A DNA stretch of 64,000 bases from an uncultured cyanobacterium. Lineage in GTDB: Bacteria; Cyanobacteriota; Cyanobacteriia; Cyanobacteriales; Cyanobacteriaceae. The stretch's first letter is position 1, and every line of letters begins with the position of its first letter. Below the pieces are notes generated by a model. That model had not been told where the DNA came from, ran no database searches, and saw only the letters and a program-made list of their open reading frames with translations. The translations under genes and the position numbers were made by a program. Of this stretch, positions 10,697 through 32,861 are shown in pieces. The DNA lies in NCBI GenBank assembly GCA_963749915.1, contig CAVVOP010000019.1:96001-160000 (forward strand), in the 5' to 3' direction.

Positions 10697-10950
10697 CCCA
10701 CATTCCGCACGTCAATTTGCACTATGCCATGTAATACCTTAACGCCTTGTTTACAAAATATTCCCCAAGTAATAAAACAACGAAATTGAGATTAAACAAA
10801 TATAAATACTGTAAAAATCTGTATATGGCGATGCCAAAGGCACAGCGAAGCTGCTCGCAAAAAACAATAAATATATGTATTACCTATAGTAAAGTTGCGT
10901 AAAAGTCATTAAAATATGATTGTTTTCTAAAAGAACATGCGGAATGTGGG
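10697..10950. mobile_element. MITE with IS1634-type ends
   Basis: IR cccacattccgca / tgcggaatgtggg; the same end follows the IS1634 remnant at 14545-14558. Confidence 0.75.
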
Positions 10951-15256: not shown

Positions 15257-16687
15257 TTAGTCTCTCACTCGCAATTTTCCACTCATTAGTTTAGGGAGTA
15301 AGGTATCACGGGTTTTTGTTAGGGTTTGAATTTGTTGATTATTTAGATGATATTTTTTAAATATTGGTAGAATTATTTTTCTAAAAGAGTCAATAATCAA
15401 AGAATTAGGAATGATAATGGGCATCTCCCGTAAAGATCCTAAAGTTATATAAGATTGTGTAGTTCCTGCGAGCCTTGTTCTAAAGTAAGATTTTCCATAA
15501 GTTGAATTTAAAAACAAATATAAAAATTCAGAATATTCTAGATTTTGAGATGTTTTAAACAAGCCAATATTTTTAATGGCAAAATCAATTTCCTCATCTA
15601 AGACAAAATATAAAATTCCAACTGTTCCAATCATCGATAGTAAGATATCATATCTATCCACTTTGCTCCTTTTATTAATATCGATATAATCAGATTCGGA
15701 AATCAAGTAAGCAGAATTAAAATCAATTCCTTCTTTTTTTAGATGTTTTGAGGTTATCAAATAAAAACCTTTTTCTGATTGTTTAGGAGAATCATGTGTT
15801 CCATCCCTAACATCAATAATCTTTTCTAAATTTCCCACTGGCCAACCTGCGGGAATTTCGCCTAGCTCAGACGGGAGCGAAGCGCTGCTGCAAGCAGTTC
15901 GCATTTCACCACCAGAGGATTTATAAGGTTTACCGTCTTCATTAGGAAACTCAAAATCTATAAACCAATGCTTAAATAATGTCTGGGCAATCGCTTCTAA
16001 GCTTTCATTCTGCCTTCTCAAATTGTCAATCTTCGCATCTAAACAAGATAATACATCGGCAATTTTCTTTTGTTCTTCTAAATCAGGTACTTGAAGCTTA
16101 ATCTGACTCAAAATAGATTGATTAATGAGAGGTTGACCTGAACCGCCTCTTAGCCTATCTAATTTATAGTTATTGAGAAAATAGTAAAGAAACACTGAAT
16201 CAGAAATACCTTCTATACTACTTCCAATAATTGCGTTATCAGTAACCCAGCATTCTTCTTTACTCTCTCCAATAAACCAATTCTCAACCTTTAAACCATT
16301 AAAATCTTCAAAATCACTAACATTATTGGTCACCAAAACCAAATCATTACAAAAAGCAATACCCGCAATTTGTCCATCGGCAAAAGCAGGAATTTTTCCC
16401 ATCTTCGATAACCTCGCCCTTTCCTCACCGTGCCACCGTGCCGCTCGTAAATCATAATCAAAAACAGGCATCTTTAAAGGTATCTGCTCAATATAATCCA
16501 GTAAAAATTTTCTTTTTGCCGACTCAGGAGGTAATCGCAAATAACCATAGAATAGTTTATGAATTACTATTGAATCCGTTGCAACTTCCCTCTGATAACG
16601 GTTCATTTTTTCTACCACAAATTGATTGGGTATTTTTTTATTGATTTCAGAAATAACATTGGTGTCTAAGAGATACTTAAAAGTCAA
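15257..16687 (-). CDS. hsdS: In-frame fusion of a VapC/PIN toxin and an N-truncated type I R-M specificity subunit
   Basis: aa 1-138 PIN (LLDTNVISE, ADGQIAG, LVTNNVSDF); remainder HsdS (PDLEEQKKIA, LGEIPAGW, RDTLLPKLMSGKLRV). Confidence 0.8.
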   Translation of the reverse strand: MTFKYLLDTNVISEINKKIPNQFVVEKMNRYQREVATDSIVIHKLFYGYLRLPPESAKRKFLLDYIEQIPLKMPVFDYDLRAARWHGEERARLSKMGKIPAFADGQIAGIAFCNDLVLVTNNVSDFEDFNGLKVENWFIGESKEECWVTDNAIIGSSIEGISDSVFLYYFLNNYKLDRLRGGSGQPLINQSILSQIKLQVPDLEEQKKIADVLSCLDAKIDNLRRQNESLEAIAQTLFKHWFIDFEFPNEDGKPYKSSGGEMRTACSSASLPSELGEIPAGWPVGNLEKIIDVRDGTHDSPKQSEKGFYLITSKHLKKEGIDFNSAYLISESDYIDINKRSKVDRYDILLSMIGTVGILYFVLDEEIDFAIKNIGLFKTSQNLEYSEFLYLFLNSTYGKSYFRTRLAGTTQSYITLGSLREMPIIIPNSLIIDSFRKIILPIFKKYHLNNQQIQTLTKTRDTLLPKLMSGKLRVRD

Positions 16688-17551: not shown

Positions 17552-17785
17552 TCAACCAGAAAAAGCAAAAACATCAACCAGAATTGATCTTTGAGGTGAT
17601 GGATTATTATTGAGCATTAAACGAATATTCTCTGCTGTTTCTGCGGTAAAGATTATTTCTCCACAACGAGAGCATACTTGTGCTGGGATATTTTCCACCA
17701 AAACTAACTTATCATTCAAATTAAAAGTTTGATTAACTAGAGTTTCCTGCCAATCATTAGCATTACAAACATGACAATTATCCAT
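17552..17785 (-). CDS. YgiT-type zinc finger protein (MqsA-like antitoxin)
   Basis: CxxC...ENIPAQVCSRCGE. Confidence 0.85.
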   Translation of the reverse strand: MDNCHVCNANDWQETLVNQTFNLNDKLVLVENIPAQVCSRCGEIIFTAETAENIRLMLNNNPSPQRSILVDVFAFSG

Positions 17786-18099
17786 TATGTCCTCCTTTGT
17801 TTATACTTAATCCATTCTTCAGATGATGGTTCATATAAAGTAATAATAGTTAAAAATTCTCCTTCTTTTCTCGATACCTGCAAATGTAAAACCCGATTAT
17901 TAATTGTTAACCCTAATAGCAAACAACTAGGAGAATATTTATCATCTGGGTAATTTTCAATAATAATCGCATTTTTTCCCGTTTCTTTAATCTCCTCTAA
18001 ACTGATATTCCTCTCTACCAAACGCTGTAAACCATGACGGGTAAATTGAATTTTGCCCTTAGTTAGTTGTTGCCTAATTTGCTTAAGGGATTTCATCAA
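17785..18099 (-). CDS. DUF4258 domain protein (putative toxin)
   Basis: FTRHGLQRLVERNI, IIENYPDDKYSPSCLLLG and IITLYEP motifs; coupled to the YgiT finger gene. Confidence 0.8.
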   Translation of the reverse strand: MMKSLKQIRQQLTKGKIQFTRHGLQRLVERNISLEEIKETGKNAIIIENYPDDKYSPSCLLLGLTINNRVLHLQVSRKEGEFLTIITLYEPSSEEWIKYKQRRT

Positions 18100-18826
18100 A
18101 AATCCCCCAAAGAAAAACCGACTTTCTCTAACTGTATTTTAATCTCTTTATCCAAAGCCAAACCTTCTCGCATTTGTTCTGCTAACTCTTTGGTTAAAAC
18201 TTCCATCGTCTCCTCAAAGGAAATACCATCATCCTCTTCATCAGGAATCCCTACATAACGCCCTGGAGTCAAGACAAAATTATGCTTCTCAATCTCCGCT
18301 AACGTTGCCGACTTACAAAAACCCTTAACATCCTTATAATTCCCCTCGCTCTCTGGGAGAGGGTTTAGGGGTGAGGGCTTCTTCTTCCACTCATGATAAG
18401 TATCGGCAATTTTGGCAATATTCTCATCACTAAAAGCACGATTACGACGATTGACCATATAACCTAACTCCGAAGCATCAATAAATAACACCTCACCCTT
18501 ACGAGATCGACTCTTATTCACGTTTTTATAGCGACTGAGGAACCATAAACAAGCAGGAATACCAGTGTTATAGAATAGCTGTGTCGGTAACATGACAATA
18601 CAATCCACCAAATCAGCTAAATCCTTATGAGCATCATTGAGAAAAGAACCTTCAGGATTCCACTTAATATTCGAGCCATCAATTCCCCTAATCGCCAAAT
18701 TCATCCGACATAACTTATAGGTGGTTTCGTTGCTCTCCTGCCCATAGATAGAAATATCATCCAACCGCCCTTGGTGAGCTTCAATAAACTTCTCACTCTG
18801 AACAAACATTCCCCCCGAACCGCAAA
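18096..18826 (-). pseudogene. hsdM: Type I R-M methyltransferase remnant
   Basis: CGSGGMFVQS, YGQESN, LFYNTGIPACLW and LTPGRYVG motifs; N-terminus and catalytic NPPF segment missing. Confidence 0.85.
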
Positions 18827-18980
18827 GGTTAATCTTACAGTTTCTCAGCCCCAACTGTCGAAAATATTATTTGCTCTGTTAGGTAACCTGCCGAATGTAG
18901 GTTCTAATTGTTTATTTGTGGGCATTTATCTTTTGACATAAAGTTTACTAAGAAGTCATTCAAATCTTCTATGTGGTTGT

Positions 18981-19089
18981 CAAAATCTATTATCGAGAAT
19001 CACTTTTGACCAAAATATCTGAGCAGGAAAACCAGTTATTAGAGGTTTAAGAATTTCTGTGACGATGATTTTAGAACTTTTAAGCTCAA
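18981..19089 (+). pseudogene. DUF433 antitoxin remnant
   Basis: QNLLSRITFDQNI*AGKPVIRGLRISVTMILELLS with internal TGA. Confidence 0.7.
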
Positions 19090-19320
19090 TCTATTTCATC
19101 TTAGAAATTACTCACATTCAATTGGTTAAACTAAGAACCCAATCATTAGGCTATTATTTGTGGGAATTTCTTTTTTACTGGTTAATATTTGCATTTATAT
19201 TTTATGGTCAAAAATATCTAAACCAAGACGAGGTGAACGTTTAGTTTATCATCATTTATTTTCTCTAAAACAAATGCTAGCATTTTTATCGAATGTAGTT
19301 AATCAAATTTATTAGGATTG

Positions 19321-20367
19321 TTATAAATCTATTATTCCATATGTATATAACATAATAACAACCAATCCTATAGAGATAATTAATAATATAACCACGATAA
19401 AATTTAAACAACCTAAATTTCCTTTTATACTTTTAATAACATCTTGTAGCTTCTTAGTTTTTACAGAAAACAGATCATCTATTTGAACTATTTTTTCATC
19501 ATGAATTTTAAGTGATTGACGTATATTAAATATATTCTCAGAATTTAAACTTTCATTATTCTTAATGAGTTCATAAATATCTTTTATGTGTTCACTAATT
19601 TTATTGGTAAAATAGATATTTAGTTTATTTATATCTTGATCAACTTGATATTTGATATCAATTAGTTCACTTGTTATTTCTGATAAATTTTGTTCCAATA
19701 AATTTTGTTTATCTTGGGTTTGTAAATTACTATTATAGTGTTCATTTAAAAGTTTTATTAAATCTTGAATATTTTTGGGTATTTTACCCTCTTTGTTAGT
19801 AAGTTTTTCTAATTCTTCCAATAATTGATTGGCGGGAGAAATCTTACTGCGAATATCACCTTTAGCTTTTAATTGCCAAGATTCTCCACCGGGTAAAATA
19901 TCAACTTTACATGGTTTTTCTATACTGAAATTATTACTAATTGGGCTTACATCTCCTTGAATAATGAATAAAGATTCTATCTGATTTTTTAAACGATTAA
20001 AATTAATTTTACGATCACCATTGAATACTAAATAATAAGATTTACCATTTTCATTTTCTATTAAAATAATCCAATAATAACCACTATTTGTATATTCTAA
20101 ATAAATATTTTCATTATTATCACCCCTATAAGTATCTGCCGTCACGGAAACAGGAGTCCCATATTCCGCTAATATTTGAGGGGCATAATTATAAATATTA
20201 ATTAACTCCTCTTCACTAATATTTATCGGCTTTGGTTGGGGGTTAGATTTTCCACCTGTAACGATAACTCTTTGAGTCGATATTTCTAGTTCTTTTAGTT
20301 TTTTATCTACTTCTTGGAATTTGTTATATATGAGTTCTAGATTTTGACTTGGGGTGTTTTCATTCAT
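19321..20367 (-). CDS. Hypothetical protein: shared cluster domain, coiled coil, C-terminal TM anchor
   Basis: N-half paralogous to 30106-31176; hydrophobic C-terminal segment. Confidence 0.8.
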   Translation of the reverse strand: MNENTPSQNLELIYNKFQEVDKKLKELEISTQRVIVTGGKSNPQPKPINISEEELINIYNYAPQILAEYGTPVSVTADTYRGDNNENIYLEYTNSGYYWIILIENENGKSYYLVFNGDRKINFNRLKNQIESLFIIQGDVSPISNNFSIEKPCKVDILPGGESWQLKAKGDIRSKISPANQLLEELEKLTNKEGKIPKNIQDLIKLLNEHYNSNLQTQDKQNLLEQNLSEITSELIDIKYQVDQDINKLNIYFTNKISEHIKDIYELIKNNESLNSENIFNIRQSLKIHDEKIVQIDDLFSVKTKKLQDVIKSIKGNLGCLNFIVVILLIISIGLVVIMLYTYGIIDL

Positions 20368-20427
20368 AGTTTTTATATGGAAATAGTCAATAATTAATAA
20401 TGAAAATTATAAAAATTACCAATTAAA

Positions 20428-21891
20428 TTAATTTACTAAATCTATTTCTCCAGATTGAACTAATGCCCATTTGTTTTTAGTATTTTGTTTAACGATGGCA
20501 GGTTTTATTATACTAATTTGATTTCCTTTCAATGTTTGAGATAAATTACCATTACAAATAAATAATTGTGACTTTTTAATTTGTTGTAGAGTTTGAGAAT
20601 TAAATGGAGTATGAGGATCTAAAAATAGATAAAAGTCTCCGTTATTACTATTACTTGCCACAATATAGTATTCTCCTTGACGGTTGTTATTTTCTAATTC
20701 TACTAAACCTTCCCATGTACCCGCTAAAACTTTATTAACAGTATCTTTTGTCATACTTACCCGAATAGCATTTTTTAATAAGCCTTGAGGATTTTCTCTA
20801 TATAAATTTATCAATCTCACATCTTCTGACATTGGGGGAGGCGGCGGTGGTGTTTCTTTATGAATGGTATTAGAATATTGTTGTTGCAAAGATGTGGCAT
20901 CTCTATCACTATCATTCACTGATGGAGGGTTATTTATTTGAAATTCTAATTGTCTGAATTGTTGCTGAACTATAGAGAATTGTGTTTGAGAAAAAGTATT
21001 TAACTCATTAACTTTATCTTGTAAGATTTTTATTTGCTGGTTAAGATATTGATCTTTTCCTTCAAATTCTTCCATGGCATTTTTTTGATGTTTTATTACT
21101 CTAAGTAATTCTCCATTTTTCTTTTTTAGATCCCTAATTAGTAAAGTATTAATAATTGATAATATGGTAACTACTAATCCCAAAACTGAACCAGTTATTA
21201 TAAGTATTAAGACTAGTTTATTCCCTTGATTCTTGTTGTCATTTATATCTACTAAGTTTTCGCTATTAACTGATTTATTTATTGTTTTTATATGGTCTTC
21301 TATTTGTTTGTTTTTTTCGGAGAAAAATGTTGCTAAATTATCATAGGTTTTGTCAGTAAAATTACCGCAATCATTATCATTTTTATTCTGAACAACTCCT
21401 AACGGTATTTGAATATTCTCGCAAATTTCCTTTTCATCTAATTTACCATCCTCGAATAATTTAATAATAGAAGCTATATTTGGGTCTTTTGTTTCTCCTT
21501 CAGTTGCATCGTTGGGTATTTTTATTAACATTAATAAAGATTCAATGTTATTATCATCAACAACTATAGCTTTTAAGCTGTTTGTTGCAGTTGTTAAATT
21601 CTCCAAATCTTTTGGGATTTTCGGGTCAATATTTTCAATAATCTTCGGTTCTGGTGATTTTTCACTTTCTTTTTTTAGTTTTATTAATAATTGTCCATTT
21701 TCTTTGATATTTTCAGCAAAAATTTGATACTTATCTTCAATTTCTTTATTTAATTTTTCAATTTGGTATTTTTTCATTATTTCTTGTTGCGATATATCAT
21801 TCTTCCCAAAAATTGATTCCAAGTTACATCCTGTTAAAAGGAAGGGAAATAAAAAACTTAATAAAATTAATTTAATGGCTTTATTGTTCAT
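20428..21891 (-). CDS. Putative lipoprotein with internal TM helix, coiled coil and C-terminal shared domain
   Basis: Lipobox LLTGC; TM LVLILIITGSVLGLVVTILSII; poly-Pro linker. Confidence 0.8.
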   Translation of the reverse strand: MNNKAIKLILLSFLFPFLLTGCNLESIFGKNDISQQEIMKKYQIEKLNKEIEDKYQIFAENIKENGQLLIKLKKESEKSPEPKIIENIDPKIPKDLENLTTATNSLKAIVVDDNNIESLLMLIKIPNDATEGETKDPNIASIIKLFEDGKLDEKEICENIQIPLGVVQNKNDNDCGNFTDKTYDNLATFFSEKNKQIEDHIKTINKSVNSENLVDINDNKNQGNKLVLILIITGSVLGLVVTILSIINTLLIRDLKKKNGELLRVIKHQKNAMEEFEGKDQYLNQQIKILQDKVNELNTFSQTQFSIVQQQFRQLEFQINNPPSVNDSDRDATSLQQQYSNTIHKETPPPPPPMSEDVRLINLYRENPQGLLKNAIRVSMTKDTVNKVLAGTWEGLVELENNNRQGEYYIVASNSNNGDFYLFLDPHTPFNSQTLQQIKKSQLFICNGNLSQTLKGNQISIIKPAIVKQNTKNKWALVQSGEIDLVN

Positions 21892-21907
21892 AATAACCTC
21901 TGAGTAA

Positions 21908-22813
21908 TTAATAATTAAAATTTAAAATACCTTTATCGGATAACCGCCATTGATTTTGATTAACTTCAAAAACTTTGGCCGGCTTAATTACTTGAAAATT
22001 TTTGGATAAATGTTCTTGATAACCTCGTAACTCAAAAATAGTCTTGACCGTTTTAAGATTAGTATTAATTTTTAAATTTAAATCTGGTAACAAATAATAG
22101 CCCCCAGTTTCTAACTTTACAATCCAATAATCACTTTGATTCGAGTCTTGAAAAATTATTTCATTAGCTTTGTTTAGGTAAATATCTTCTAAAGTTTTTT
22201 TAGTGGGGGTAACTTTATAAGCATAATTAGCTAAAAAATTCGGATTATTATAATATTGCTCAATTACATATTGTTCATAATGATCTAGTTCCTGGTAAGG
22301 GGTTATATGTGGAGAATTAGTATTTTCTGAATTAGGGTTATTCTCGGTAAATTTTGTGTCCCCTAAATTGATAGAGTTAAAAGTTTCCATAGATGTTGAT
22401 TGGGTTTGAATTGATAAATCCTTAAGAGATTCTCTGACAATTTTTTTTATTCGACTGTATAAATCTGCTAGAATTTCTTGTTTCAGATTGCTAGATTGAC
22501 TATCCTGATTGGATAAATCATCTACTTGCTTTTCAAGTTCAGAAAGACGAATTTTTAATTCTAATAACTCATTGACCAAATTCTGGGATTCTTCCATTTT
22601 TTTTCTCAACTCATTTCTTTCTTTTCTATAATTATTTGCCCTGTAACAGGCAATTCTTGCCCAATCTTCATTTTTTTTGAGGATTTGTGCCGATGAAATT
22701 TTTTGATTTCCTGAATATAAAGTTAAATCCCAATTACAATATGCACATTCCCCTTGATTTTTTACATATTCAACACCACAAATAGGACATTTTTTTTTGT
22801 TAGCTGAAAACAT
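21908..22813 (-). CDS. Zinc-ribbon / coiled-coil protein with C-terminal shared domain
   Basis: CPICG...CAYCNW; heptad-rich middle region. Confidence 0.8.
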   Translation of the reverse strand: MFSANKKKCPICGVEYVKNQGECAYCNWDLTLYSGNQKISSAQILKKNEDWARIACYRANNYRKERNELRKKMEESQNLVNELLELKIRLSELEKQVDDLSNQDSQSSNLKQEILADLYSRIKKIVRESLKDLSIQTQSTSMETFNSINLGDTKFTENNPNSENTNSPHITPYQELDHYEQYVIEQYYNNPNFLANYAYKVTPTKKTLEDIYLNKANEIIFQDSNQSDYWIVKLETGGYYLLPDLNLKINTNLKTVKTIFELRGYQEHLSKNFQVIKPAKVFEVNQNQWRLSDKGILNFNY

Positions 22814-22916
22814 AATTTCATGGACTAATGTTAATAGTATTTACCCTAAAATGGAGGCTAATTTTGATCCTCCCAACCCCCCCATCACATCAATAAGGGG
22901 GCAATGGATAGGATGA

Positions 22917-25900
22917 TTAATCTTTATAAGAGTCTGCCCATCTTCTGCCTAGAACATGGAGTAAGGATTTTAAACCCATAATAAAGGGGGTTTTTTCCCT
23001 GATATTTTTGGCATCTCCTCTCACATCTAGTAATTCATTTTCCAGGTGATATTTGACCTCTCGCCACAATTCACTGTTTTTATCCTCTTGAGCCGAATCT
23101 TTTTCGTTTTTTTCCGCCGGTTTTTGGGGTTTATAATCTGATTTTGCTAAGGGTTTAATAGTTTCCAAATTTAAAGATTTGATCCCCCCATGAAACTCGT
23201 ATAAAAATCGCTCTAAATGATCGAGGTTAGGAATATCAAACTTGGTAATATTACCCTCTAAATGGAGGCGAGATTGCCAGTTATTTTTCTCCTGAAATTC
23301 CTCATCATCATCATGATATTCGACATAGTAATCCTCTCCGGCGATGGGTTGTTTTTCCTTGTTTTCAGTCATTCCCGTTAATTCCGTTTGACTGAGAACT
23401 AAACCACAGGCTACTTCATGTTTCGGACGAGTGCTAAGGCGTGTTTTTTCGTGAGTATCTTTGAACCCTGAGCCTTTACTTAACATCAGACTAAGTAGTT
23501 TATTAAACTCGGTATTTTGGTCAAATTTACCCGTAGGAGAAAGCCAATGTAAGAAGCGAGACGCATTACCGCCAATATAAACAGGGGTAATCTGATCCTT
23601 ACTATATTTGCCTTGTTTATGAAGTACTTGCAAAATTAGACCAACATAGTAATATAAACCAGCAACTCCGATGGCCGTGAGGGTGACTAAACGCTGAAAA
23701 TACTCATCCTCATTTTTGTAGATCCGTTTTTTATTTAACCATTCCTCTGCCTTATGACGCAAAGCCACATCAATATTGGTCATGATGGAATATTCGCTTA
23801 AACCTGTCCAATCATTGGGGGTAAATTCCTTCATCAACTTTTGGGCGTAACGGGGATTCATGGCGATAATCTCCGAAAAAATATTTCTTCCAGCTAATAA
23901 GACCGAACATTGATAAACGATTTTGCGGTTTTCCCAAATAGATATATCTGAAGTGCCGCCTCCCATGTCAATACAAGTACTGCGAATTAGAGGATGTTTT
24001 TCTTTATCGTTGAAATATTGAGCTAAGGCTACGCTTTCTGTACAAAAACGCTGAGTATCATCAATGGTAGGACAAGAATAGGTTATCCCTGTTTTCGGGC
24101 TTAATTCTTCGGCAATTTCTTCCCAGTTACGATGAAATGTGGTCACGTTGGTATTGGAAAAAGCACTGGGATAAGATATACACCATTCAATAGTATTCAT
24201 CCCGGCATGAACCGCTAAAGCCGAGATTTGTAAGGATAAATGACGGAGAAAAACCTTAGAATATCTAAGATTTGACCATTTCAGATCTAATTTTATCCAT
24301 TGTTTATTGGGATCAAATTCCGTGGGATCGGGGACAAAGATACGACCATCTAAAATGGGTTGTAATTCTCCCTCATCTTCACCGTTTTTCGTGGTAAGTA
24401 CTGTGCACAATGGTAAAGGATCCTCAGACGGCAGAAATTGGGCAGGGATAAAACTTTCAATTAAAGCAGGGAAACGAGTGGCGATAGGACTTTCAGTTAT
24501 ATTCAGTTGTAAATTTTTGTTGATATCCAGGGGAAAATCACCGCTATTGTCACCTTTAACATAAACGTTAGTAAAAGATGTACCAAAGTCAACCCCCACT
24601 CGCCATGTACCTCGTGAGTTAATTTCTGGAGGAGTTGACAGTAAAATTAAGCCAATGTCCCGATAGTAGCTATCTTTACACACCACATGGGTAGGCATTT
24701 CTTGAAGGGTGGAAAGTTGGTATGATCCTGTACCATCAGGGGCTTTGAAACTTCGGGCTTGTTGGTTAGGGAAGTAAACTTTAAAGGTCTCCTCTCCATA
24801 GTCACCATCATAGTAAAAAGTATAGTATTGTTGCCAATTTTTTGCTCGAAAGTTAGGCCAAACCGTTAACACAGGTAAATATTTGATGGCATTTTCTTCC
24901 TGGAGAATATACTCTTTTTGGAGGCGGTAACTTTGGAATTGATTTTGATTAGGGATACCTGATAGGGGAATGGTCAAGGTTATACGAATTCCCTGCCCAT
25001 TAATATTATTAAAAGGCTCTAATTGAATTTTACCGATCAGATCTTCGGGGGTAAAGTACCTTAATAAAATCGGATTGAGGGGGATTAGGGGAGTTACTTT
25101 TTCGCCGTTAAAGGTTATCGGTAGGGTTGTTTTTGGTAGTAAACCTCCGGGTAATGCGTCTTCGAGATCTAAAAATCCTAATTCTTCTAAAAATAATTCT
25201 TCGGAGGTAATCCAATTCACATCATCCCAAACTAATGTGCCATCTCGCAGATCTTTTACGTTTAAGGAGGCTAAAGTGCGATCTTTGTGTACCCAAATAT
25301 TTTGTTTGGGTTGTCCCCAATATTCAGCGATATTCTCATCGATGATAATCAGGGGTTTAGCGTTAGTTTTGATGGCACTGGGAATTACTCTAAGATTAGA
25401 GGGTTTAGGGGGAATTTTGATGGGTTGATTGAGTAAAATTAACGCTCCTCGGTTAATGGATTCACCGAAAAAGTTGGGATTATCACTAAGATTTAAAGGG
25501 GGTATTCCTTGATCATTGATTTGTAAATCCTTACGGAATTGACTGATTAACCCCATCATTTTATTGAGGGCGATCGCAGTGCCATTATAGGCGACGAGAT
25601 TATTTTGGATATTTTCTAACCAACGCCACAATAATTCCTTCGATTCTTGATTCAAATAAGGTTCAGGGCTTACTAACATCCCATCTTGCCACCACCGCAA
25701 CCCGTCCCATTTTCCTTCCTCCGAGGTACAAACAAGGGTACTCGGGCTTGTCATTCCCACTGTTTTACCATTCCACAGGAACACATAAACTTCTTCCCAA
25801 GGGTTTTTATTATCTCTGGTGTAAAGGGCGTTAACAGGTTCAGGCATTAGTTGATAAAGGGCATCTCCAAAGGGTTGGAATCGTTGTTGAGAGAGATCTA

Positions 25901-26207
25901 AAAACTGGACTTTTAAATCGAATCCTTCTACTTCCGCCAAGGCGATCGCGGCCATCATCCCTCGCCATTGTGCCACCATCGCCTTATGAATGGGGTGATT
26001 AGTGTCATAAAGTGCCATTTCCATGATCAGAGGACGTGCCCACATGGTAGGGACGGAACTGACACTTTTAATAACTCCTGGGGCTTGATAATCGAGGCTA
26101 TCGGCTACATCTCGAAAGGCATTATCCCCCCTGCCTTCCCATTGTCCGGGTTGCCCTCTAGTAATGTTGGTATCGTCTTTTAACTTCGATAACAGTAAAT
26201 CTGCCAT
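22917..26207 (-). CDS. Large protein with C-terminal actin/Hsp70-fold ATPase domain
   Basis: GVDFGTS (phosphate 1), ESVA (connect 1), IDMGGGTSD (phosphate 2), IGGNASR (adenosine), PKHEVACG (connect 2). Confidence 0.85.
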   Translation of the reverse strand: MADLLLSKLKDDTNITRGQPGQWEGRGDNAFRDVADSLDYQAPGVIKSVSSVPTMWARPLIMEMALYDTNHPIHKAMVAQWRGMMAAIALAEVEGFDLKVQFLDLSQQRFQPFGDALYQLMPEPVNALYTRDNKNPWEEVYVFLWNGKTVGMTSPSTLVCTSEEGKWDGLRWWQDGMLVSPEPYLNQESKELLWRWLENIQNNLVAYNGTAIALNKMMGLISQFRKDLQINDQGIPPLNLSDNPNFFGESINRGALILLNQPIKIPPKPSNLRVIPSAIKTNAKPLIIIDENIAEYWGQPKQNIWVHKDRTLASLNVKDLRDGTLVWDDVNWITSEELFLEELGFLDLEDALPGGLLPKTTLPITFNGEKVTPLIPLNPILLRYFTPEDLIGKIQLEPFNNINGQGIRITLTIPLSGIPNQNQFQSYRLQKEYILQEENAIKYLPVLTVWPNFRAKNWQQYYTFYYDGDYGEETFKVYFPNQQARSFKAPDGTGSYQLSTLQEMPTHVVCKDSYYRDIGLILLSTPPEINSRGTWRVGVDFGTSFTNVYVKGDNSGDFPLDINKNLQLNITESPIATRFPALIESFIPAQFLPSEDPLPLCTVLTTKNGEDEGELQPILDGRIFVPDPTEFDPNKQWIKLDLKWSNLRYSKVFLRHLSLQISALAVHAGMNTIEWCISYPSAFSNTNVTTFHRNWEEIAEELSPKTGITYSCPTIDDTQRFCTESVALAQYFNDKEKHPLIRSTCIDMGGGTSDISIWENRKIVYQCSVLLAGRNIFSEIIAMNPRYAQKLMKEFTPNDWTGLSEYSIMTNIDVALRHKAEEWLNKKRIYKNEDEYFQRLVTLTAIGVAGLYYYVGLILQVLHKQGKYSKDQITPVYIGGNASRFLHWLSPTGKFDQNTEFNKLLSLMLSKGSGFKDTHEKTRLSTRPKHEVACGLVLSQTELTGMTENKEKQPIAGEDYYVEYHDDDEEFQEKNNWQSRLHLEGNITKFDIPNLDHLERFLYEFHGGIKSLNLETIKPLAKSDYKPQKPAEKNEKDSAQEDKNSELWREVKYHLENELLDVRGDAKNIREKTPFIMGLKSLLHVLGRRWADSYKD

Positions 26208-26223
26208 TTTTCAAACCTCTTGA

Positions 26224-27723
26224 TTAAACTTTACAACAAACATAAATCGCTTTAGCCAATCCTGGGACTCCCTGATTTGGTTCGCCAAAATTACTGATAT
26301 CTAAATCACCGATGGCATTTTTGAGGGTCACTGCCGTATCTTGATCGACAATTTCCTTGGTACGGGAGTCATCCCATAATAAATCGCCGAACTTTTCACC
26401 TTTTAAACTACGAGGGTTAACAAAATACTCCCTTGCTTTAAATAAGCGTATGCGTTCGTTATCACAATAGTGAATATCCTTTAACCATCGCAAAAAATCC
26501 ACACACCAGTTATCAATACTTTTAATGGCTTCCTGTTGGTCAGAATCACTCAAATCGGGCAAATGTTTACGGGTTTTCATAAACAAGCTAATTCCCTGAA
26601 AGAATTTATCGAACCAAGCTAAACCGTTTAACTCCTTAATTCCTTGAACTTTAGCTGACTGTAACTGAGGTTGAAAATCCGCTAACCAAATAAAGGCAAA
26701 ACGGGCGGCATTGACCAACTTAATTTTTACCTCCTCAACTTGGGGTATATCATCCCATGTTAAAATCCCTGCCTGGGCACGACTCATGACATGGACACCT
26801 TTTTGGGGATGATCACAGAAAAAATGACGGGCGGCCAAACTGGCATAAAATTCCACAAAATGAGGGCGATTCACTTGAGTATCTTTCCCAACGCTAAACT
26901 CTCCCAATTTTTCCATACTCTGATTGCCGATTAAGTATTTGGTGTCAAATTGTTGGGCTTGTTCTCGGTAATACCTTAAGGCTGCCTCAGTATTCAGTAA
27001 AAACAGGTCTGAACTGGCGTAAACTTGCTCATTACCATTACCTTTGGGAAAATTAAAGTAAGGAAGGGCAAAAATACAACCGATTTTCACTCTATCCCTA
27101 ACGCCGTCTTTTTCTAATTTATTGGCAATCAACCGCCCAACAGTTGGCAAACCTGAAGCACCTGTTCCGCCGAAAATTGAGCCACACAGTAAAACTTTAG
27201 CATTACTGCCACTACTCGCATTGTTTTCGATTTCATTGATAAAACTTCGCCAAGGTTCTTCTTCTAGCCGTTCGAGATTTATTTGAGTCATAATACTCGA
27301 TCCAATGGCTGGTCTGCCTCGAAAACCAACTTCTAAAGAGACTTTTCGCTCATTCTCAGTATAGAGAACATCGAATAAATTAGCTAAGGATGGAGAAGTT
27401 TGTTTGAGGGTATCATAGGCAAAAAATGACCCCAGTTTGCGATCGGCATTATTTTTAGTAAAAGGTGACCAAACCCCATAAGATTCAATGTTAGTGGTCA
27501 TCCAAGGGCATTCTTGATGTTTTCCCTGCAATAACTGATAACATTTTTGATAGAGACTGAGGCTCGTTTGTGATCGCTGTAAATTACCGTTAGTTTCATC
27601 GGCATCAATAAATAAAATTCTTAACTTATTGGTAGGAATTAAACCCACGGAGGTCAATTGAATAATTGCCTCAACACATTTAGCACCTGTACCACCAATA
27701 CCCACAACATAAAAACTCATCAT
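26224..27723 (-). CDS. Divergent FtsZ/tubulin-superfamily GTPase
   Basis: VVGIGGTG (T1), IDAD, GFRGRPAIG (T3-like), GSIFGGTGASG (tubulin signature variant). Confidence 0.88.
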   Translation of the reverse strand: MMSFYVVGIGGTGAKCVEAIIQLTSVGLIPTNKLRILFIDADETNGNLQRSQTSLSLYQKCYQLLQGKHQECPWMTTNIESYGVWSPFTKNNADRKLGSFFAYDTLKQTSPSLANLFDVLYTENERKVSLEVGFRGRPAIGSSIMTQINLERLEEEPWRSFINEIENNASSGSNAKVLLCGSIFGGTGASGLPTVGRLIANKLEKDGVRDRVKIGCIFALPYFNFPKGNGNEQVYASSDLFLLNTEAALRYYREQAQQFDTKYLIGNQSMEKLGEFSVGKDTQVNRPHFVEFYASLAARHFFCDHPQKGVHVMSRAQAGILTWDDIPQVEEVKIKLVNAARFAFIWLADFQPQLQSAKVQGIKELNGLAWFDKFFQGISLFMKTRKHLPDLSDSDQQEAIKSIDNWCVDFLRWLKDIHYCDNERIRLFKAREYFVNPRSLKGEKFGDLLWDDSRTKEIVDQDTAVTLKNAIGDLDISNFGEPNQGVPGLAKAIYVCCKV

Positions 27724-27846
27724 TTTTCCCCTATTTTATTTAGACATCTCCAAAAAATTCAACTCGAAATCAATTGTAGGATTGGGAATCATTAATTTTA
27801 TCCACTATTACCTATCTATTCCCCGACTTCTGAAAAAAGTCCATGG

Positions 27847-28335
27847 TTAATTTCTATTCATGAGGCCATTAACCATTATCGCCCCAGGTACGGTTTTCTT
27901 TTTCAATAGTCCTGGGGTACTGGTAACGGTGGGTAGCCAATAAAGTAAAAATAAAGAGTTGAACAAGAATAACCCCATCATGGAAATTAAAGTTTCTTGA
28001 ATTAACTCCCCATTCTGATCTTGATTATTAAAGTAAACCGTTGCACTGACGATGATTACCAGTAGTAATAAACCTATATACCAGAGTAGCTTAAAGGAAC
28101 TGGCATTACCATGTTGATTTTTTAGGAGTACAACATACCATAAAATAGTAAAGCTAAGGGAAAAAGCAAAAATAATCCAAGCCGCTAAGGTATATTGTTT
28201 AACCCAATCACTGAAAGGAATACTCCTAATTACCCCGAAAAATTTTTGCTCATAAAGTAACGGTTGTAACCACATCATAAGTATAAAACCCACTAAGGCA
28301 AAGATGATGATTCTAATAATTTCGCCGACTTTCAT
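27847..28335 (-). CDS. Integral membrane protein (about 4 TM helices)
   Basis: Four hydrophobic segments; first gene of the leftward arm. Confidence 0.8.
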   Translation of the reverse strand: MKVGEIIRIIIFALVGFILMMWLQPLLYEQKFFGVIRSIPFSDWVKQYTLAAWIIFAFSLSFTILWYVVLLKNQHGNASSFKLLWYIGLLLLVIIVSATVYFNNQDQNGELIQETLISMMGLFLFNSLFLLYWLPTVTSTPGLLKKKTVPGAIMVNGLMNRN

Positions 28336-28504
28336 TATTTTTAATGTCGATAATTAGGTTTAGTTTTGATACTAAAGTTGTTATACTGTAAAATATATAA
28401 AACTTCAATATCTATCTCAAATAAGAAACGCTATTTAATACTTATTCGACAACTTACGATATATTTACATTGTAAACGAACATATAGAAAACGATAGTTA
28501 ATTC

Positions 28505-30064
28505 ATGGGTAACGTTGGTAAAAATACCTTTAAATCCTTACTTTTTATTATTTTGTCCATATCTCTGTTGTCGAGTTGCCAAAAAACTCCCGAGGAAGAG
28601 TTAGCCTGTAATACAGATTCGAGACCAGCAAAAGTTAATATAGAAAATACCGATAGTAAATTAGATATATCCGTCAATGTGGATGGTAGTGATTCGATGG
28701 TGGGTTATGTAACTATTCCTAACAATAACTATAGTAAAGTCTTAGAATTAATAGCCAATGCCGTTATCAGTACCAATACGGTGAATGTAGAGTATAAGCG
28801 CATTGGAGATGATAAAACCCTCACCCGTAACGATTTCCGCAAAGACGCCACCTCTAAGGTTTTTTATGGTGGCAATGATAGCATTTATAAACCTGTTTCT
28901 AGTCCTATTCACTCTGCCATTACTCCCCCAGTGGCGGGAAAATATAAGTTAACGATTATTGTCACGGATTTAGAGGGAGATGATGGAGGAAAAATTGCCG
29001 AAATTTTAGCACAAAATTACTTAAATAATGATGAAAAAAATCGAGATTATACTGTCGGTATTTGGGGGGTAAAAAGTCAGTTTAACGGTACTATTTATGA
29101 TCCCAATACTGGCAGGGCTAAATTTAATTATAGTACCCAGGGAAAAAAAGCCGATGGTTTTCGTCCTTTCTATGTTTTATTTGTGGGTAAATATGATCAC
29201 ATCGCTAAATATTTTGATGAGTTTAAAAAACTAGATACTCAAATTCAAAATGATAGTCATATGTTTATTTTTCCTACTCAAAAAATGGTAGAAAATCCCA
29301 TTAATTTAGGTACTCTTGACGAGAGAAAAAATAATAGTAAATTACCACAAAATCAGCAATTAGAAAGAGTTTTTGCTCTACAGGATAATCATGTTATTGT
29401 TGACGTAAAAAATCCTCACAATCAACCTTACGAATTATTAAGTATAGTTAATGATAGCGATCCAAAACCGACTATTCATTATCAAGTTTCTTTTCCCCAA
29501 ATTAATAATATTAAAGAGGATAGTTATTCGTTATACATTGACGAAAACAACTTAAAAACTAAAACCAAAGTATTTACTTTTAACTCTAATAATCAAGTTA
29601 ATAAAGTAACGGAATCTACTCCCGAAGAATCAGAATCGGATACTGAGGAAAAAAATACTAAGAAAAAAGATCAACCTAAAAAAGTTGATAATGAATTAAA
29701 TAATGCCTATGAAAAAAAGTTCTTTAAACTCAATTCTAGTAATTCTTTACAACAGGGATTAGTAGTTAAAGATTTAAAGTTGGATAAGGAAAAAGAAACC
29801 TTACAATTTATCACCGATATTAATTTAAATAGTTTGCCAAATTCGGAAATTTATTTATTTGAAGTTGATTTAATTTTAACAGATTTAACAGGGTTAGACT
29901 GGTGGAATAGTTGGAGTACTAATAGTCAAAGTAATGATGGCTCAAAAACACAAAATTTGTCTATTTTTATGAATAAATTAAAGAGTTTAACATTGCAAAA
30001 TTTCAGCAATCAGGATGGGGATCCAGTCATTGGTACTTTTTGTTTTGCCCTTCAAAAAAATTAA
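28505..30064 (+). CDS. Lipoprotein with vWA-like domain
   Basis: Lipobox LLSSC; VDGSDSM (MIDAS DxSxS) and IIVTDLE. Confidence 0.75.
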   Translation: MGNVGKNTFKSLLFIILSISLLSSCQKTPEEELACNTDSRPAKVNIENTDSKLDISVNVDGSDSMVGYVTIPNNNYSKVLELIANAVISTNTVNVEYKRIGDDKTLTRNDFRKDATSKVFYGGNDSIYKPVSSPIHSAITPPVAGKYKLTIIVTDLEGDDGGKIAEILAQNYLNNDEKNRDYTVGIWGVKSQFNGTIYDPNTGRAKFNYSTQGKKADGFRPFYVLFVGKYDHIAKYFDEFKKLDTQIQNDSHMFIFPTQKMVENPINLGTLDERKNNSKLPQNQQLERVFALQDNHVIVDVKNPHNQPYELLSIVNDSDPKPTIHYQVSFPQINNIKEDSYSLYIDENNLKTKTKVFTFNSNNQVNKVTESTPEESESDTEEKNTKKKDQPKKVDNELNNAYEKKFFKLNSSNSLQQGLVVKDLKLDKEKETLQFITDINLNSLPNSEIYLFEVDLILTDLTGLDWWNSWSTNSQSNDGSKTQNLSIFMNKLKSLTLQNFSNQDGDPVIGTFCFALQKN

Positions 30065-30105
30065 ATAGATTTATGTAAATTTTATCGACGAAAAATTTAT
30101 AATCT

Positions 30106-31176
30106 ATGACTAATAATTATGATTTAGAAAAAATCTTCAGTTATGTACAAAAATTAGAGAAAAGAATTACTAAATTAGAATCAGAAAAAGCAATAATTGT
30201 TCATGGTCATTTAGCAAGTCAATCAGCAAAATCCCTGACAATTTCTTTGAATCAATTAATTAATGTTTATAACGATGTTTCTCATATTTTAGATGTTTAT
30301 GCTGTAACAGTTTCTTTATCCGCCGATAGTTATCGTCAACAAGTAAAAGATCAAGTTATATTAAATCAAGTAACAAGAGGAAATTATTGGGTTATTTTAT
30401 TGGAAAATGAAGAAGGAAAAAACTATTATTTATTACCCAATGCTAATATTAAACTCAGAATATACAGATTAAAAACTATCAGTAATTTATTTGCAATCAA
30501 AGGTGAAAATGATGGAAAACAAGAAGAATTTACTTTAATTAAACCTGCTAAATTAGAAATTTTATCCAGTGGTAATGAGTGGAGAATCAAGGAAAAAGGA
30601 GAGTTATTTTTAGGTAAGAAAAGCTCTACCCAAAGGTTAGTATCAGAGTTAGAAAAATTTACCGCACATGAAGACAAAATTCCCGCTAGTTTACAACAAT
30701 TGTTAAAAATTTTAACCAAAATAAATCAAGGTAATTCTCAGTTAGCCAAAGAGATTGAATTATTAGATAGTAGATTACAAAAATTAGAGCCTCAATACGT
30801 TAGGTTAATTAATTTATATTATAAGAATCCCCAAAAATTTGCTCAGTTAGAAGGAGGTAGTCAACGATTAAAAGTAACAAAACAGACGATTAAAGATTTT
30901 ATTCAAAATACCATGAATTCCGTTTATTTAGAAGTTAATGAAGCTGGAGAATATTTACTTAAAAAAGGAGAAAAAGATGAATATTTATTTCCAGATCCTC
31001 TCTTAATTTTTGATAAAATGACTTTATTATTTGCCCGTCAAGGAAAATTATTTATCATTGAAAATGAAATACCGATCGCGATTTTGGGCAAGGATATGAA
31101 AATCAAAAAACCTGCTAAGGTAAGAAAAAATGGTGATGTTTGGTTATTAATTGAATCGGGAGAAATAAGTTTATAA
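30106..31176 (+). CDS. Hypothetical protein with two copies of the shared cluster domain
   Basis: Two segments ending IKPAKL..W.IKEKGEL and KKPAKV..WLLIESGEI. Confidence 0.8.
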   Translation: MTNNYDLEKIFSYVQKLEKRITKLESEKAIIVHGHLASQSAKSLTISLNQLINVYNDVSHILDVYAVTVSLSADSYRQQVKDQVILNQVTRGNYWVILLENEEGKNYYLLPNANIKLRIYRLKTISNLFAIKGENDGKQEEFTLIKPAKLEILSSGNEWRIKEKGELFLGKKSSTQRLVSELEKFTAHEDKIPASLQQLLKILTKINQGNSQLAKEIELLDSRLQKLEPQYVRLINLYYKNPQKFAQLEGGSQRLKVTKQTIKDFIQNTMNSVYLEVNEAGEYLLKKGEKDEYLFPDPLLIFDKMTLLFARQGKLFIIENEIPIAILGKDMKIKKPAKVRKNGDVWLLIESGEISL

Positions 31177-31363
31177 CAATTCTAAGTATAGCTATTCGCC
31201 ATGTGGTATTGACAATTTAATGATCAACTTACCTGAGTGAACTATAAAATTGTTGATAAGGGGAGGTAATAGGTAATGGCTAATGGGTAATAGGTTCGAG
31301 AATTTAGATAAACTCTTTCATTTATCCAAGTATAAGACTAAGATAAACACCTTAATTTATAAG

Positions 31364-32861
31364 CTATGCCTTACCCATAAGTGCTGAAATACCTACTATG
31401 ATTGTATTCTAGAAAAGTTAGTTTAAAGGAGAAAAATCATGCAATCATGGGCAGCAGAAGAACTAGAATACACTAATTTACCGGACAAACGATTAAACCA
31501 AAGATTGATAAAAATTGTGGAACAAGCAAGTGCGCAACCTGAGGCAAGCGTTCCTCAAGCAAGTGGTGATTGGGCTAATACTAAAGCCACTTATAATTTC
31601 TGGAATTCAGAAAAGTTTAGCAGTGAAGATATAATTGATGGTCATCGACTCAAAACAGCACAAAGAGCTTCACAGGAGGATGTAATCCTAGCCATACAAG
31701 ACACCAGTGACTTTAATTTTACTCATCACTTGAGCAAAAATTGGGACAAAGGCTTTGGACAAACCTGTTCTCAAAAATATGTGAGAGGGCTAAAAGTCCA
31801 TTCAACCCTTGCCGTCAGTTCACAAGGAGTTCCCTTAGGAATTTTAGACCTACAAATCTGGACCAGAGAGCCCAAGAAAAAGCGCAAGAAAAAGAAATCA
31901 AAAAGTAATACCAGTATTTTCCACAAAGAAAGTAAAAGATGGCTGAGAGGATTAGTTGATGCTGAATTGAATGGCGCTGACTTAGCCATTCCATCAACGA
32001 CAAAGATAGTCACGATTGCTGATCGAGAAGGTTATATGTATGAGCTGTTTGCTTTGGAAAGAGAACCCAACTCAGAATTATTAATTCGAGCTAACCACAA
32101 TCGTCCTGTCAATCATGAAATGAAATATCTGAGAGAATCTATCTCTCAAGCCCCAGAGGCCGGAAAATTAAAGGTTTCTGTGCCCAAAAAAGATGGTAAA
32201 CCTCTCAGAGAAGCCACTTTGACCATTCGTTGTGGGATGTTAACCATCTCTCCTCCCAGCAATAGTTCTCCAGGGAACAACCGCTCACCGATTAGTTTGA
32301 ACGTGATTTATGCTGTGGAAGAGAATTTCCCCGAGGGAGTCAAACCGATTAATTGGCTTTTACTGACTACTTTAGAGGTGAACGATTTTGAGGATGCTGT
32401 TGGTTGTATTCGTTGGTACAGTTATCGTTGGCTTATCGAGCGTTACCATTATGTCCTCAAAAGTGGTTGCGGCATTGAAAAACTACAACTAGAAACAGCA
32501 GCAAGAATTAAGAAAGCTTTAGCTACTTATGCCATCGTAGCTTGGAGATTACTCTGGCTCACTTATCATGCTCGAGAAAATCCGCAACTCAAGAGTGATA
32601 CAGTTTTAGAGCAACATGAATGGCAATCTCTTTACTGTCATTTCCATCGTACTTCTATAACTCCAGCTCAGCCTCCTTCCCTTAAACAAGCTATGGTTTG
32701 GATTGCCAAATTGGGAGGATTTTTAGGAAGGAAAAATGATGGTGAACCAGGTGTCAAAAGTCTTTGGAGGGGCTTGAAACGTTTACATGATATTGCTTCC
32801 ACTTGGAAATTGGCACATTCCTCTCCCTCTATAGCTTGTGAGAGTTATGGGTAAGGCATAG
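31364..32861 (+). mobile_element. IS4-family (IS50/Tn5-like) insertion sequence
   Basis: IR ctatgccttacccataa / ttatgggtaaggcatag; 10-bp TSD AATTTATAAG at 31354-31363 and 32862-32871. Confidence 0.95.
31439..32854 (+). CDS. IS4 family transposase
   Basis: DKRLNQRL, IQDTS, ADRE, YSYRWLIERYHYVLKSG and LGGFLGRKNDGEPG motifs. Confidence 0.93.
   Translation: MQSWAAEELEYTNLPDKRLNQRLIKIVEQASAQPEASVPQASGDWANTKATYNFWNSEKFSSEDIIDGHRLKTAQRASQEDVILAIQDTSDFNFTHHLSKNWDKGFGQTCSQKYVRGLKVHSTLAVSSQGVPLGILDLQIWTREPKKKRKKKKSKSNTSIFHKESKRWLRGLVDAELNGADLAIPSTTKIVTIADREGYMYELFALEREPNSELLIRANHNRPVNHEMKYLRESISQAPEAGKLKVSVPKKDGKPLREATLTIRCGMLTISPPSNSSPGNNRSPISLNVIYAVEENFPEGVKPINWLLLTTLEVNDFEDAVGCIRWYSYRWLIERYHYVLKSGCGIEKLQLETAARIKKALATYAIVAWRLLWLTYHARENPQLKSDTVLEQHEWQSLYCHFHRTSITPAQPPSLKQAMVWIAKLGGFLGRKNDGEPGVKSLWRGLKRLHDIASTWKLAHSSPSIACESYG

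Follow-up and report, generated by a model that had tools for sequence, protein, structure and literature searches.

A cassette of eight genes was analysed in a 64,000-nt stretch of DNA from an uncultured cyanobacterium of the family Cyanobacteriaceae (GenBank assembly GCA_963749915.1, contig CAVVOP010000019.1, positions 96,001 to 160,000 of the forward strand). This whole stretch (G000:C19:96001-160000 in our numbering, from a genome of 4.69 Mb) is referred to below as the window, and positions are counted from its first base. Two predicted nucleoside triphosphatases (NTPases) of the cassette, a short tubulin/FtsZ-fold protein (E) and a giant protein with an actin/Hsp70 fold (D), were found to be strictly co-inherited, adjacent and sometimes fused into one polypeptide. 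Cytoskeletons rest on NTPases of two folds, tubulin and actin, which are usually studied apart. The composition of the cassette, its conservation and the coupling of E to D are regarded as solid.

Composition and layout of the cassette

The open reading frames (ORFs) were labelled A to H and are given here from the divergent gap outwards, first for the core and then for the array.

28505-30064, plus strand: G, lipoprotein of 519 aa (lipobox LSSC, Cys25), N-terminal domain probably vWA/MIDAS-like; core
28336-28504: divergent gap between F and G, 169 bp; presumed bidirectional promoter region
27847-28335, minus strand: F, 162 aa, with four hydrophobic segments; core membrane component
26224-27723, minus strand: E, 499-aa divergent tubulin/FtsZ-fold GTPase of a short Tubulin_2 subfamily, consisting of an N-terminal nucleotide-binding domain and a family-specific C-terminal half
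22917-26207, minus strand: D, 1096 aa, consisting of a conserved N-terminal region (~1-530), an actin/Hsp70-fold (ASKHA) ATPase domain (~532-942) and a helical C-terminal region
21908-22813, minus strand: C, 301 aa; zinc-ribbon-like at the N-terminus, coiled-coil-like in the middle, X domain at the C-terminus (DNA 21911-22288)
20428-21891, minus strand: B, 487 aa, with lipobox LTGC, a periplasmic segment, one transmembrane (TM) segment (~226-244), a coiled-coil-like segment in the cytoplasm and, at the C-terminus, an X domain (DNA 20434-20832)
19321-20367, minus strand: A, 348 aa; X domain at the N-terminus (DNA 19849-20226), coiled-coil-like in the middle, TM anchor at the C-terminus (~323-341)
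30106-31176, plus strand: H, 356 aa; two copies of X (DNA 30235-30612, 30784-31173) with a coiled-coil-like linker between them

An earlier note on this DNA, made from the sequence alone, had described eight unbroken ORFs in two divergent arms. All eight were reproduced exactly and without internal stops, with F-E-D-C-B-A on the minus strand and G-H on the plus strand around the 169-bp gap. The membrane proteins listed for the leftward arm were recovered by a hydropathy/lipobox script (four TM segments in F, a C-terminal one in A, a lipobox and a mid-protein TM segment in B). The zinc-ribbon coiled-coil protein of the note is C, which has an N-terminal CxxC...CxxC in its sequence and weak zinc-ribbon matches in NCBIfam, and its tandem-domain protein is H, in which one domain is present in two copies. 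Promoter-like hexamers were located on both strands within the gap; the promoter/terminator scan did not rise above shuffled expectation (64 vs 54.7 +/- 8.1).

Conservation of the cassette and pairing of E with D

Relatives of D were collected by scanning a genome collection, in which 197 were found, and the best 80 of these yielded the 79 loci on which the locus counts below are based. The recurring order was G on the opposite strand, then F, E and D, followed by genes related to C, H, A and B. E was present in 75 of the 79 loci, and in the remaining four D lay within 270 bases of a contig end. Directly upstream of E, an F-like ORF was found in 68 of the 79 loci, while a G-like ORF was found in 47 of the 58 loci with at least 4.5 kb of upstream sequence (48 of 53 G ORFs were divergent). 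Genes with the X domain occurred in 67 of the 79 loci and stood downstream in 62 of the 65 loci with at least 1.5 kb on that side; a C-type gene was the usual first gene after D.

Proteins B to H were aligned over their full length to their homologues in one of these loci (L002), with identities of 79% for D, 76% for E, 74% for F, 68% for G, 66% for H, 55% for C and 42% for B; identity for A was 32%. Judged from these sequences, the core is conserved much better than the array. In the region 18001-32000 the GC content was 0.40 over D and E, 0.27-0.35 over A to C and 0.31 over G and H; the genes that diverge fast are the AT-rich ones.

Co-occurrence was also counted in an even sample of 301 cyanobacterial genomes, in which D was present in 32 and E in 30. 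Of the two genomes with D only, G180 has a 367-aa fragment that contains a stop, and G025 has a partial match of 48 bits. From the coordinates, 27 of the 30 genomes with E have E and D on one contig, no more than 1.4 kb apart, and the other three were fragmented assemblies. Co-occurrence in other genomes had been set beforehand as a test of the cluster; the same gene order was found in the 79 loci, and D was present in every one of the 30 genomes with E.

Natural fusions were found in two of the 150 best representatives of the D family, P0315 (1605 aa) and P0332 (1341 aa), both of which carry a full E at the N-terminus and then D in a single polypeptide. In BLASTP comparisons with the E of the window, identities were 35% for P0315 (E-value 4e-73) and 38% for P0332 (E-value 2e-83). 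Because of the strict co-occurrence, the adjacency and these fusions, it is proposed that E and D form a physical pair. A complex prediction of X against E and D(1-332) scored 0.02 against a mark of 0.32 and was uninformative either way.

More widely, a word-seeded search with the D family returned 567 matches, of which all named ones were cyanobacterial, and a full scan of 1.84 billion representatives returned 2358 sequence-cluster matches at an E-value of <= 0.001 (896 at <= 1e-30). One relative of D came from an Acidobacteria genome bin, and no relative of D was found in viral contigs.

The actin-fold protein D

A model of D was built by AlphaFold2 from 63 sequences (m121f9387f13f; predicted local distance difference test (pLDDT) 88.2, predicted template modelling score (pTM) 0.77). 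Searching the PDB with this model using Foldseek returned BeeR, the nucleotide-binding domains of DnaK and Hsp70, EutJ and MreB at E-values of ~1e-7. In VIA-align over 48,161 chains the best match was MreB (Z 17.2, 285 residues aligned, root-mean-square deviation (rmsd) 3.8), followed by ParM (16.2), EutJ (15.8), BeeR (15.7) and, each at 15.3, PilM, FtsA and Ssz1. Fifty ASKHA chains were matched down to Z ~11, all over residues 532-942, and the actin-fold ATPase that the earlier note had recognised in D is thus placed in that region.

Three motifs were invariant in the 63 sequences, DFGTSF (540-545), DxGGxxxD (747-754) and GGN (879-881), which we take to be the phosphate-1, phosphate-2 and adenosine motifs of the actin/Hsp70 fold. 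Given the fold match and the invariant nucleotide-binding motifs, D is likely an active ATPase.

D did not reach the threshold of any Pfam or NCBIfam model (best MreB_Mbl, 17.9 bits against a cut-off of 27), with sub-threshold Pfam matches to MreB and FtsA around residues 745-782, and a sequence-profile search of the PDB returned only a 38-residue FtsA/MreB stretch (E-value 0.056). Compared with MreB, ParM, FtsA, PilM, BeeR, EutJ and the Hsp70 nucleotide-binding domain, residues 532-942 superimposed at Z 14-17 over ~240-300 residues (rmsd 3.4-4.6 A), whereas identity to D was only 12-18% and D has ~530 residues before the fold and ~150 after it. These first ~530 and last ~150 residues are as conserved as the ATPase itself. 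D also differs from canonical Hsp70: no HSP70 (Pfam) or DnaK (NCBIfam) match was obtained at an E-value of <= 0.01, a substrate-binding domain is lacking, and neither DnaJ nor GrpE was found by Pfam among the eight ORFs.

A WARP-centred motif was noticed near residue 56 of D (SVPTMWARPL here; residues ~50-60, window ~26030-26060, minus strand). It is kept to the most distant relatives, in which its P, W and R are invariant. The motif falls in a segment that was modelled with low confidence. A docking peptide is one possibility.

The tubulin-fold protein E

The tubulin-like identity assigned to E in the earlier note was upheld by Pfam, with a Tubulin_2 match of 31.2 bits (curated cut-off 27). 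Tubulin_2 was matched by 40 of 40 aligned members of the E family (best E-value 2.6e-10), and the classical Tubulin model (PF00091) was matched weakly by 33 of the 40. E and these 40 relatives are ~485-535 aa long. The motifs GxGGTG, GFRGRPxIG and GGTGASG are invariant in the family, and the invariant residues are G9-G10-x-G12, G132-F-x-G135-x-P137-x-x-G140 and G184-G185-T186-G187-A188-x-G190.

When the family was compared with 24 cyanobacterial FtsZ sequences using hhalign, GFRGRPAIG fell on GAGGNPAIG and GGTGASG on GGGTGTG (51 columns, E-value 0.044); the alignment was confined to the T3-T4 stretch, with nothing beyond it. Outside this stretch lie the T7 catalytic loop and the C-terminal activation domain, which GTP hydrolysis coupled to polymerisation requires. 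The aligned motifs are presumably loops T3 and T4 of FtsZ, in which the nucleotide-binding loops are T1, T3 and T4 (GGGTG(S/T)G signature). No match to E was returned by a sequence-profile search of the PDB. E is the sole Tubulin_2 match in the 4.69-Mb genome, and an ordinary FtsZ is encoded on another contig. The copy of E on a Gloeothece plasmid is labelled 'tubulin-like domain-containing protein' in RefSeq. In the available text of Santana-Molina et al. 2023 (PMC9871819), Tubulin_2 proteins appear only as FtsZ-like sequences that are scattered and divergent.

The X domain and the array proteins

BLASTP comparisons among A, B, C and H revealed a common segment of ~126 aa, of which A, B and C have one copy each and H has two. 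This segment, X, is a new domain that ties the four proteins together. A hidden Markov model built from the window copies detected 260 copies in 206 ORFs, including the five copies in four ORFs of the window. In the loci there are 202 X ORFs, with 1-8 X copies per locus, and in 174 of the 202 the domain is at the C-terminus. A profile of 62 diverse copies gave exactly five matches in the whole genome, all of them in the cluster.

These 62 domains gave no convincing match when compared to Pfam, the models of effector-associated domains (EADs) included, and no family was matched by more than three members. A sequence-profile search of the PDB returned nothing. The X model (pLDDT 95.7, pTM 0.88) comprises three N-terminal helices and a mainly beta body. 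Its best match by Foldseek in the PDB had an E-value of 0.58, VIA-align over the 48,161 chains reached a best Z of 3.8 (none >= 5), and the best viral structure in BFVD had an E-value of 0.27. X is accordingly modelled as an alpha+beta domain without a solved structural relative. A hidden copy of X inside the D family was considered and ruled out (hhalign probability 0.25%).

The 94 longest of the 202 X proteins were scanned for partner domains. WD40 propellers were found in seven and an FGE-sulfatase domain in one, and the remainder contained zinc ribbons and coiled-coil-like segments. The 94 matches to longer X-bearing proteins in a set of 5.8 billion sequences added no further Pfam partners. 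Seven of the 79 loci contain a second, N-terminally shortened D (~730 aa) inside the array, which is fused to X in L041. In the 150 D representatives X was fused to D or shortened D four times, with X before a shortened D in two and after a full-length D in two. Since X is fused to diverse proteins and at times to D, it appears to behave as an adaptor through which variable proteins, and occasionally D itself, are joined in one complex. From their predicted topology, X would be cytoplasmic in all four window proteins.

The lipoprotein G and associated kinases

The earlier note had called G a vWA-like lipoprotein. The lipobox (LSSC) stands; the vWA label is probable only, with weak profile matches. 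In the alignment of the G family C25, D60, S64, M65, G67 and D155 are invariant and T154 is conserved at >=90%. D60-x-S-x-S64 and T154-D155 form a DxSxS...TD pattern, which we take to be the one expected of a vWA MIDAS site. VWA or VWA_2 of Pfam was matched weakly by 3 of 43 family members (E-values 0.06-0.07). In hhalign comparisons with 3 and with 30 vWA domains from this and related genomes, E-values were 4e-4 and 6e-4 and probabilities 34% and 29%; the alignments kept the two MIDAS strands in register. From these alignments G quite probably has a vWA fold.

Distant G-like proteins often lack an exact DxSxS. A sequence-profile search of the PDB returned no match for G, and searches of the ESM Atlas with G and a homologue returned unnamed clusters only. 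The 58 matches of a G-family search included none with a vWA annotation and one kinase fusion. Kinases recur around the cassette: the G homologue P0263 (750 aa) is fused to a Ser/Thr kinase, kinase-like ORFs adjoin the cassette in several loci (e.g. L062:4040-5704 and L002:18938-20737), and a kinase is near the cassette on a plasmid of NIES-970 (Ser/Thr kinase at AP017960.1 57137-58954).

Distribution and genomic setting

Within the family, 11 of 20 genomes carry the cassette; within the genus, 3 of 6 other species do. Carriers include Microcystis, Trichodesmium and Crocosphaera. Most copies are chromosomal; one resides on a mobilisable plasmid of 47.5 kb in Gloeothece verrucosa PCC 7822 (plasmid Cy782204), and a variant of 28% identity is on plasmids of several Picosynechococcus strains. 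Decay is frequent, with in-frame stops in D or E in four genomes (G274, G059, G180 and G071), a split E in G305, and both F and D split in Trichodesmium erythraeum IMS101 (L024; NC_008312.1, ~1.85-1.87 Mb). As judged from the sequenced carriers, the cassette is accessory and horizontally mobile.

In the window the cluster sits in mobile-element-rich DNA. A full-length Tn5/IS4-type transposase (31439-32854) lies directly to the right of H. To the left, a small defence/toxin-antitoxin-like patch with at least one broken gene holds a DUF6883/DUF4926 pair (14592-15253), a type I restriction-modification specificity subunit (15257-16687), an MqsA-like antitoxin adjoining a DUF4258 protein (17552-18099) and a truncated HsdM-like N6_Mtase ORF (18096-18854, 252 aa). 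Pseudogene-rich surroundings had been claimed for the cluster; this holds as far as a spot check went, which found the truncated HsdM and a transposase fragment at 10293-10715 (140 aa, only the end of the DDE domain kept).

In Richelia sinica, a 686-aa ORF upstream of the cassette (L016:2439-4496) matched PbeC of PADLOC from end to end with 1125 bits; it may be a housekeeping Hsp70-type gene.

Distant variants of the cassette

A metagenome scan seeded with distant relatives of D yielded 12 loci, the most distant eight of which are L166-L173. Seven of these eight (L167-L173) contain co-directional G-, E- and D-like genes, L171 being cut at its 5' end and showing E and D only, and L166 contains only a D-like ORF. 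Five loci (L167-L170 and L172) have a small ORF between G and E, and in four of the five it is hydrophobic. None of the eight loci has an X gene. The following genes were found downstream of D.

L167: two trypsin-like peptidases (Pfam)
L169, 13088-14287: DO-GTPase three genes downstream of D (DO-GTPase2 1.2e-13, DO-GTPase1 4e-8)
L170, 9861-11965, a few genes away from D and on its strand: aspartyl protease (gag-asp_proteas), NucA-type non-specific endonuclease, then GH25 lysozyme
L171, 8626-10159, likewise a few genes away from D and on its strand: aspartyl protease and NucA-type non-specific endonuclease
L173: FtsK-gamma/zinc-ribbon protein

L168 adjoins a type I restriction-modification system. 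In cyanobacteria, the D homologue P0112 has Trypsin_2 and VMAP-M1 fused at its N-terminus.

Comparison with known systems

The earlier note knew of no characterised system with this composition. That was confirmed in so far as PADLOC and NCBIfam returned nothing above noise (NCBIfam recognised none of the eight proteins) and no published description of the cassette, the D family or the X domain was found in the literature searched.

Operons of FtsZl1 (Tubulin_2) with vWA proteins, membrane proteins, kinases and a GTPase were predicted by Makarova and Koonin 2010, who proposed a membrane-remodelling role for the FtsZl1-vWA operons (PMC2875224). The cassette resembles them in the Tubulin_2 match of E, in the adjoining signal-peptide-bearing and probably vWA-like G, in its membrane proteins, in the recurrent Ser/Thr kinases near or fused to G and in the ordinary FtsZ encoded alongside. 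As far as the literature searched goes, both are known from computation alone. The listed FtsZl1 proteins are, however, ~900-1400 aa long (900-1393) with a coiled coil and a helical C-terminal domain, and by length the 499-aa E does not have this architecture. The sole Trichodesmium erythraeum entry of that list, Tery_1707 (2.596 Mb), and the E homologue of L024 (~1.857 Mb) are two separate genes, and the E subfamily therefore seems to fall outside the FtsZl1 set as listed there. A giant actin-fold partner does not feature in the passages of that paper that were consulted, and 'Hsp70' has 0 occurrences in its main text.

Kaur, Burroughs, Iyer and Aravind 2020 (PMC7159879) predicted nucleoside triphosphate (NTP)-dependent conflict systems, among them DO-GTPase/GAP1-N2 systems with a tubulin or an HSP70 theme. 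The repertoire set out in the available text includes trypsin-like peptidases with NucA, WD40-type repeats, FGS, VMAP-M, DO-GTPases, tubulin and HSP70 'assemblies', extracellular vWA proteins and effector-associated adaptor domains (PMC7159879). Both those systems and the cassette combine a constant, NTPase-centred core with a variable array; both have tubulin-family and Hsp70-superfamily proteins for which assembly is proposed, extracellular vWA (probable in G) and membrane components, and WD40, FGS, trypsin and VMAP-M fusions. The distant G-F-E-D locus L169 has a DO-GTPase of its own. In contrast, the tubulin and HSP70 themes are described there as separate, firmicute/actinobacterial and always accompanied by DO-GTPase and GAP1 (PMC7159879), whereas here both NTPases are obligatory partners in cyanobacteria.

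X resembles the EADs of that text, with their 'EAD-coupling principle', in being small, repeated in adjacent genes, and fused to diverse non-catalytic or effector modules and sometimes to a core component. It differs in being alpha+beta, where EADs are likened to Death-like helical domains, and in being confined to the cluster in this genome, where a given EAD is said to occur also in proteins encoded at other places of a genome (PMC7159879). The new elements are the short E subfamily, the obligate giant actin-fold partner D and the X adaptor domain, set in a cassette of a known kind, that of the predicted Tubulin_2/vWA or NTP-dependent conflict systems.

Possible function

By analogy with the systems predicted by Kaur et al. 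2020 (PMC7159879), the cassette is most likely an NTP-dependent conflict system (anti-invader or stress-suicide) or an envelope-alarm system, to which we give a probability of about 0.5. The earlier note had pictured a two-NTPase, envelope-spanning machine. Its composition and layout are borne out. The composition, order conservation, E-D fusion, folds of D and X, motif invariance and fusion partners were established by computation here; signal flow, assembly and a role in defence we infer as follows. G would sense an envelope cue and pass it through F. At the inner membrane E would assemble or switch with GTP and D would remodel with ATP, and the E-D assembly would recruit or release X-domain proteins, which would be an exchangeable sensor or effector layer. 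Because an enzyme is absent from the cluster, the output here might be the membrane-inserted A and B, the coiled-coil proteins, or the assembly itself. The distant variants have protease and nuclease effectors, and the function therefore tilts towards conflict or defence. Also in favour are the WD40, FGE-sulfatase and trypsin/VMAP-M1 fusions, the divergence of the array beside a conserved core, and the accessory, mobile character of the cassette, which in the window adjoins type I restriction-modification remnants and toxin-antitoxin-like pairs.

Several observations weigh against a conflict or alarm function. No enzymatic effector was recognisable in the window's cluster by Pfam, PADLOC or NCBIfam, and the eight proteins gave only weak coiled-coil-type matches in PADLOC-DB 2.0 (best E-value 1.7e-4, JetC). 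In a crude test, the flanks of the cassette showed no clear enrichment in PADLOC matches, with 19 of 134 flanking ORFs against 12 of 127 ORFs drawn at random from this genome (Fisher p 0.26). Neither DO-GTPase nor GAP1 was matched in Pfam at an E-value of <= 0.01 in the 13 ORFs between 17785 and 34986, with DO-GTPase models proven to be in the library by the L169 match. Protease and nuclease neighbours were supplied by only a few metagenomic loci, all of them distant, with co-transcription assumed from spacing and strand, and the vWA label of G is unproven.

The missing enzymatic effector and the flanks without clear enrichment in defence-model matches would also suit an accessory cytoskeletal or membrane-remodelling system without a conflict role. 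E and D would then be a membrane-attached scaffold and the X proteins structural adaptors, with G and F tethering the scaffold to the envelope for vesicle formation, envelope maintenance or local shaping. Such a role has been proposed for Tubulin_2 operons with vWA and membrane proteins (PMC2875224), and it agrees with the intact motifs of the tubulin-fold and actin-fold NTPases and with the many membrane-bound or coiled-coil-like components. We consider this explanation the main rival, though on the unlikely side. Against it stand the patchiness even within the genus, the plasmid carriage and the frequent decay, which fit an accessory function that cells can do without. The array, moreover, changes quickly and differs in copy number between loci (1-8 X copies per locus); and the WD40, FGE-sulfatase and trypsin/VMAP-M1 fusions, like the protease, nuclease, lysozyme and DO-GTPase genes near distant variants of the core, are what conflict systems typically carry and housekeeping scaffolds do not.

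Plasmid carriage in Gloeothece verrucosa PCC 7822 and several Picosynechococcus strains, together with the transposase that adjoins the cluster, raises the question of a maintenance or segregation module for mobile DNA, in which TubZ-like and ParM-like filaments would move a plasmid or island. The superfamilies of E and D include TubZ and ParM (ParM at Z 16.2 to D), and as in TubZRC and ParMRC a tubulin- or actin-fold NTPase is found on some plasmids. Here, however, both folds occur together with membrane and periplasmic partners, mostly on chromosomes, and D, with its large extra domains, is three times as big as ParM. A segregation system has no place for a periplasmic lipoprotein, for membrane proteins or for WD40/FGE-sulfatase fusions, and viral contigs yielded no relative of D. 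No DNA-binding adaptor was recognised, and a TubR/ParR-type adaptor or centromere-like repeat was not seen, although no search was aimed at them. A segregation function is very improbable. The CorMR preprint is said to concern a ParM-derived system.

It is just as hard to credit a trans-envelope transport or surface-structure apparatus with D as a PilM- or FtsA-like membrane-proximal platform: lipoproteins or bitopic proteins with periplasmic parts are present (G, B) and PilM and FtsA match D at Z 15.3, but they score no better than MreB, ParM and Hsp70, and Pfam detected no secretin, pilin, secretion-type ATPase or peptidoglycan enzyme in the cluster.

Beyond the conflict or envelope-alarm reading in its general form, E and D might constitute an obligate tubulin-actin hybrid machine, a composite nucleotide-gated polymer or ring at the inner membrane that is triggered by a periplasmic cue via G and F and gathers the coiled-coil X proteins into an effector cage, plug or membrane lesion. 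This is a speculative proposal, and a doubtful one at present. If true, it would be the first fixed pair of the two great cytoskeletal NTPase folds, docked via X, whose fold has no counterpart yet in solved structures, and a bacterial counterpart of filament-based immune signalling platforms.

Significance

The role of Tubulin_2/FtsZl1 proteins has been a question since 2010, and the cassette offers a tractable test of it. Intact copies are present in unicellular strains with small genomes, which are good starting material for genetics and biochemistry. The cassette is possibly a new class of cyanobacterial defence or envelope-response system, which would bear on the phage-host dynamics of bloom-forming and marine cyanobacteria.

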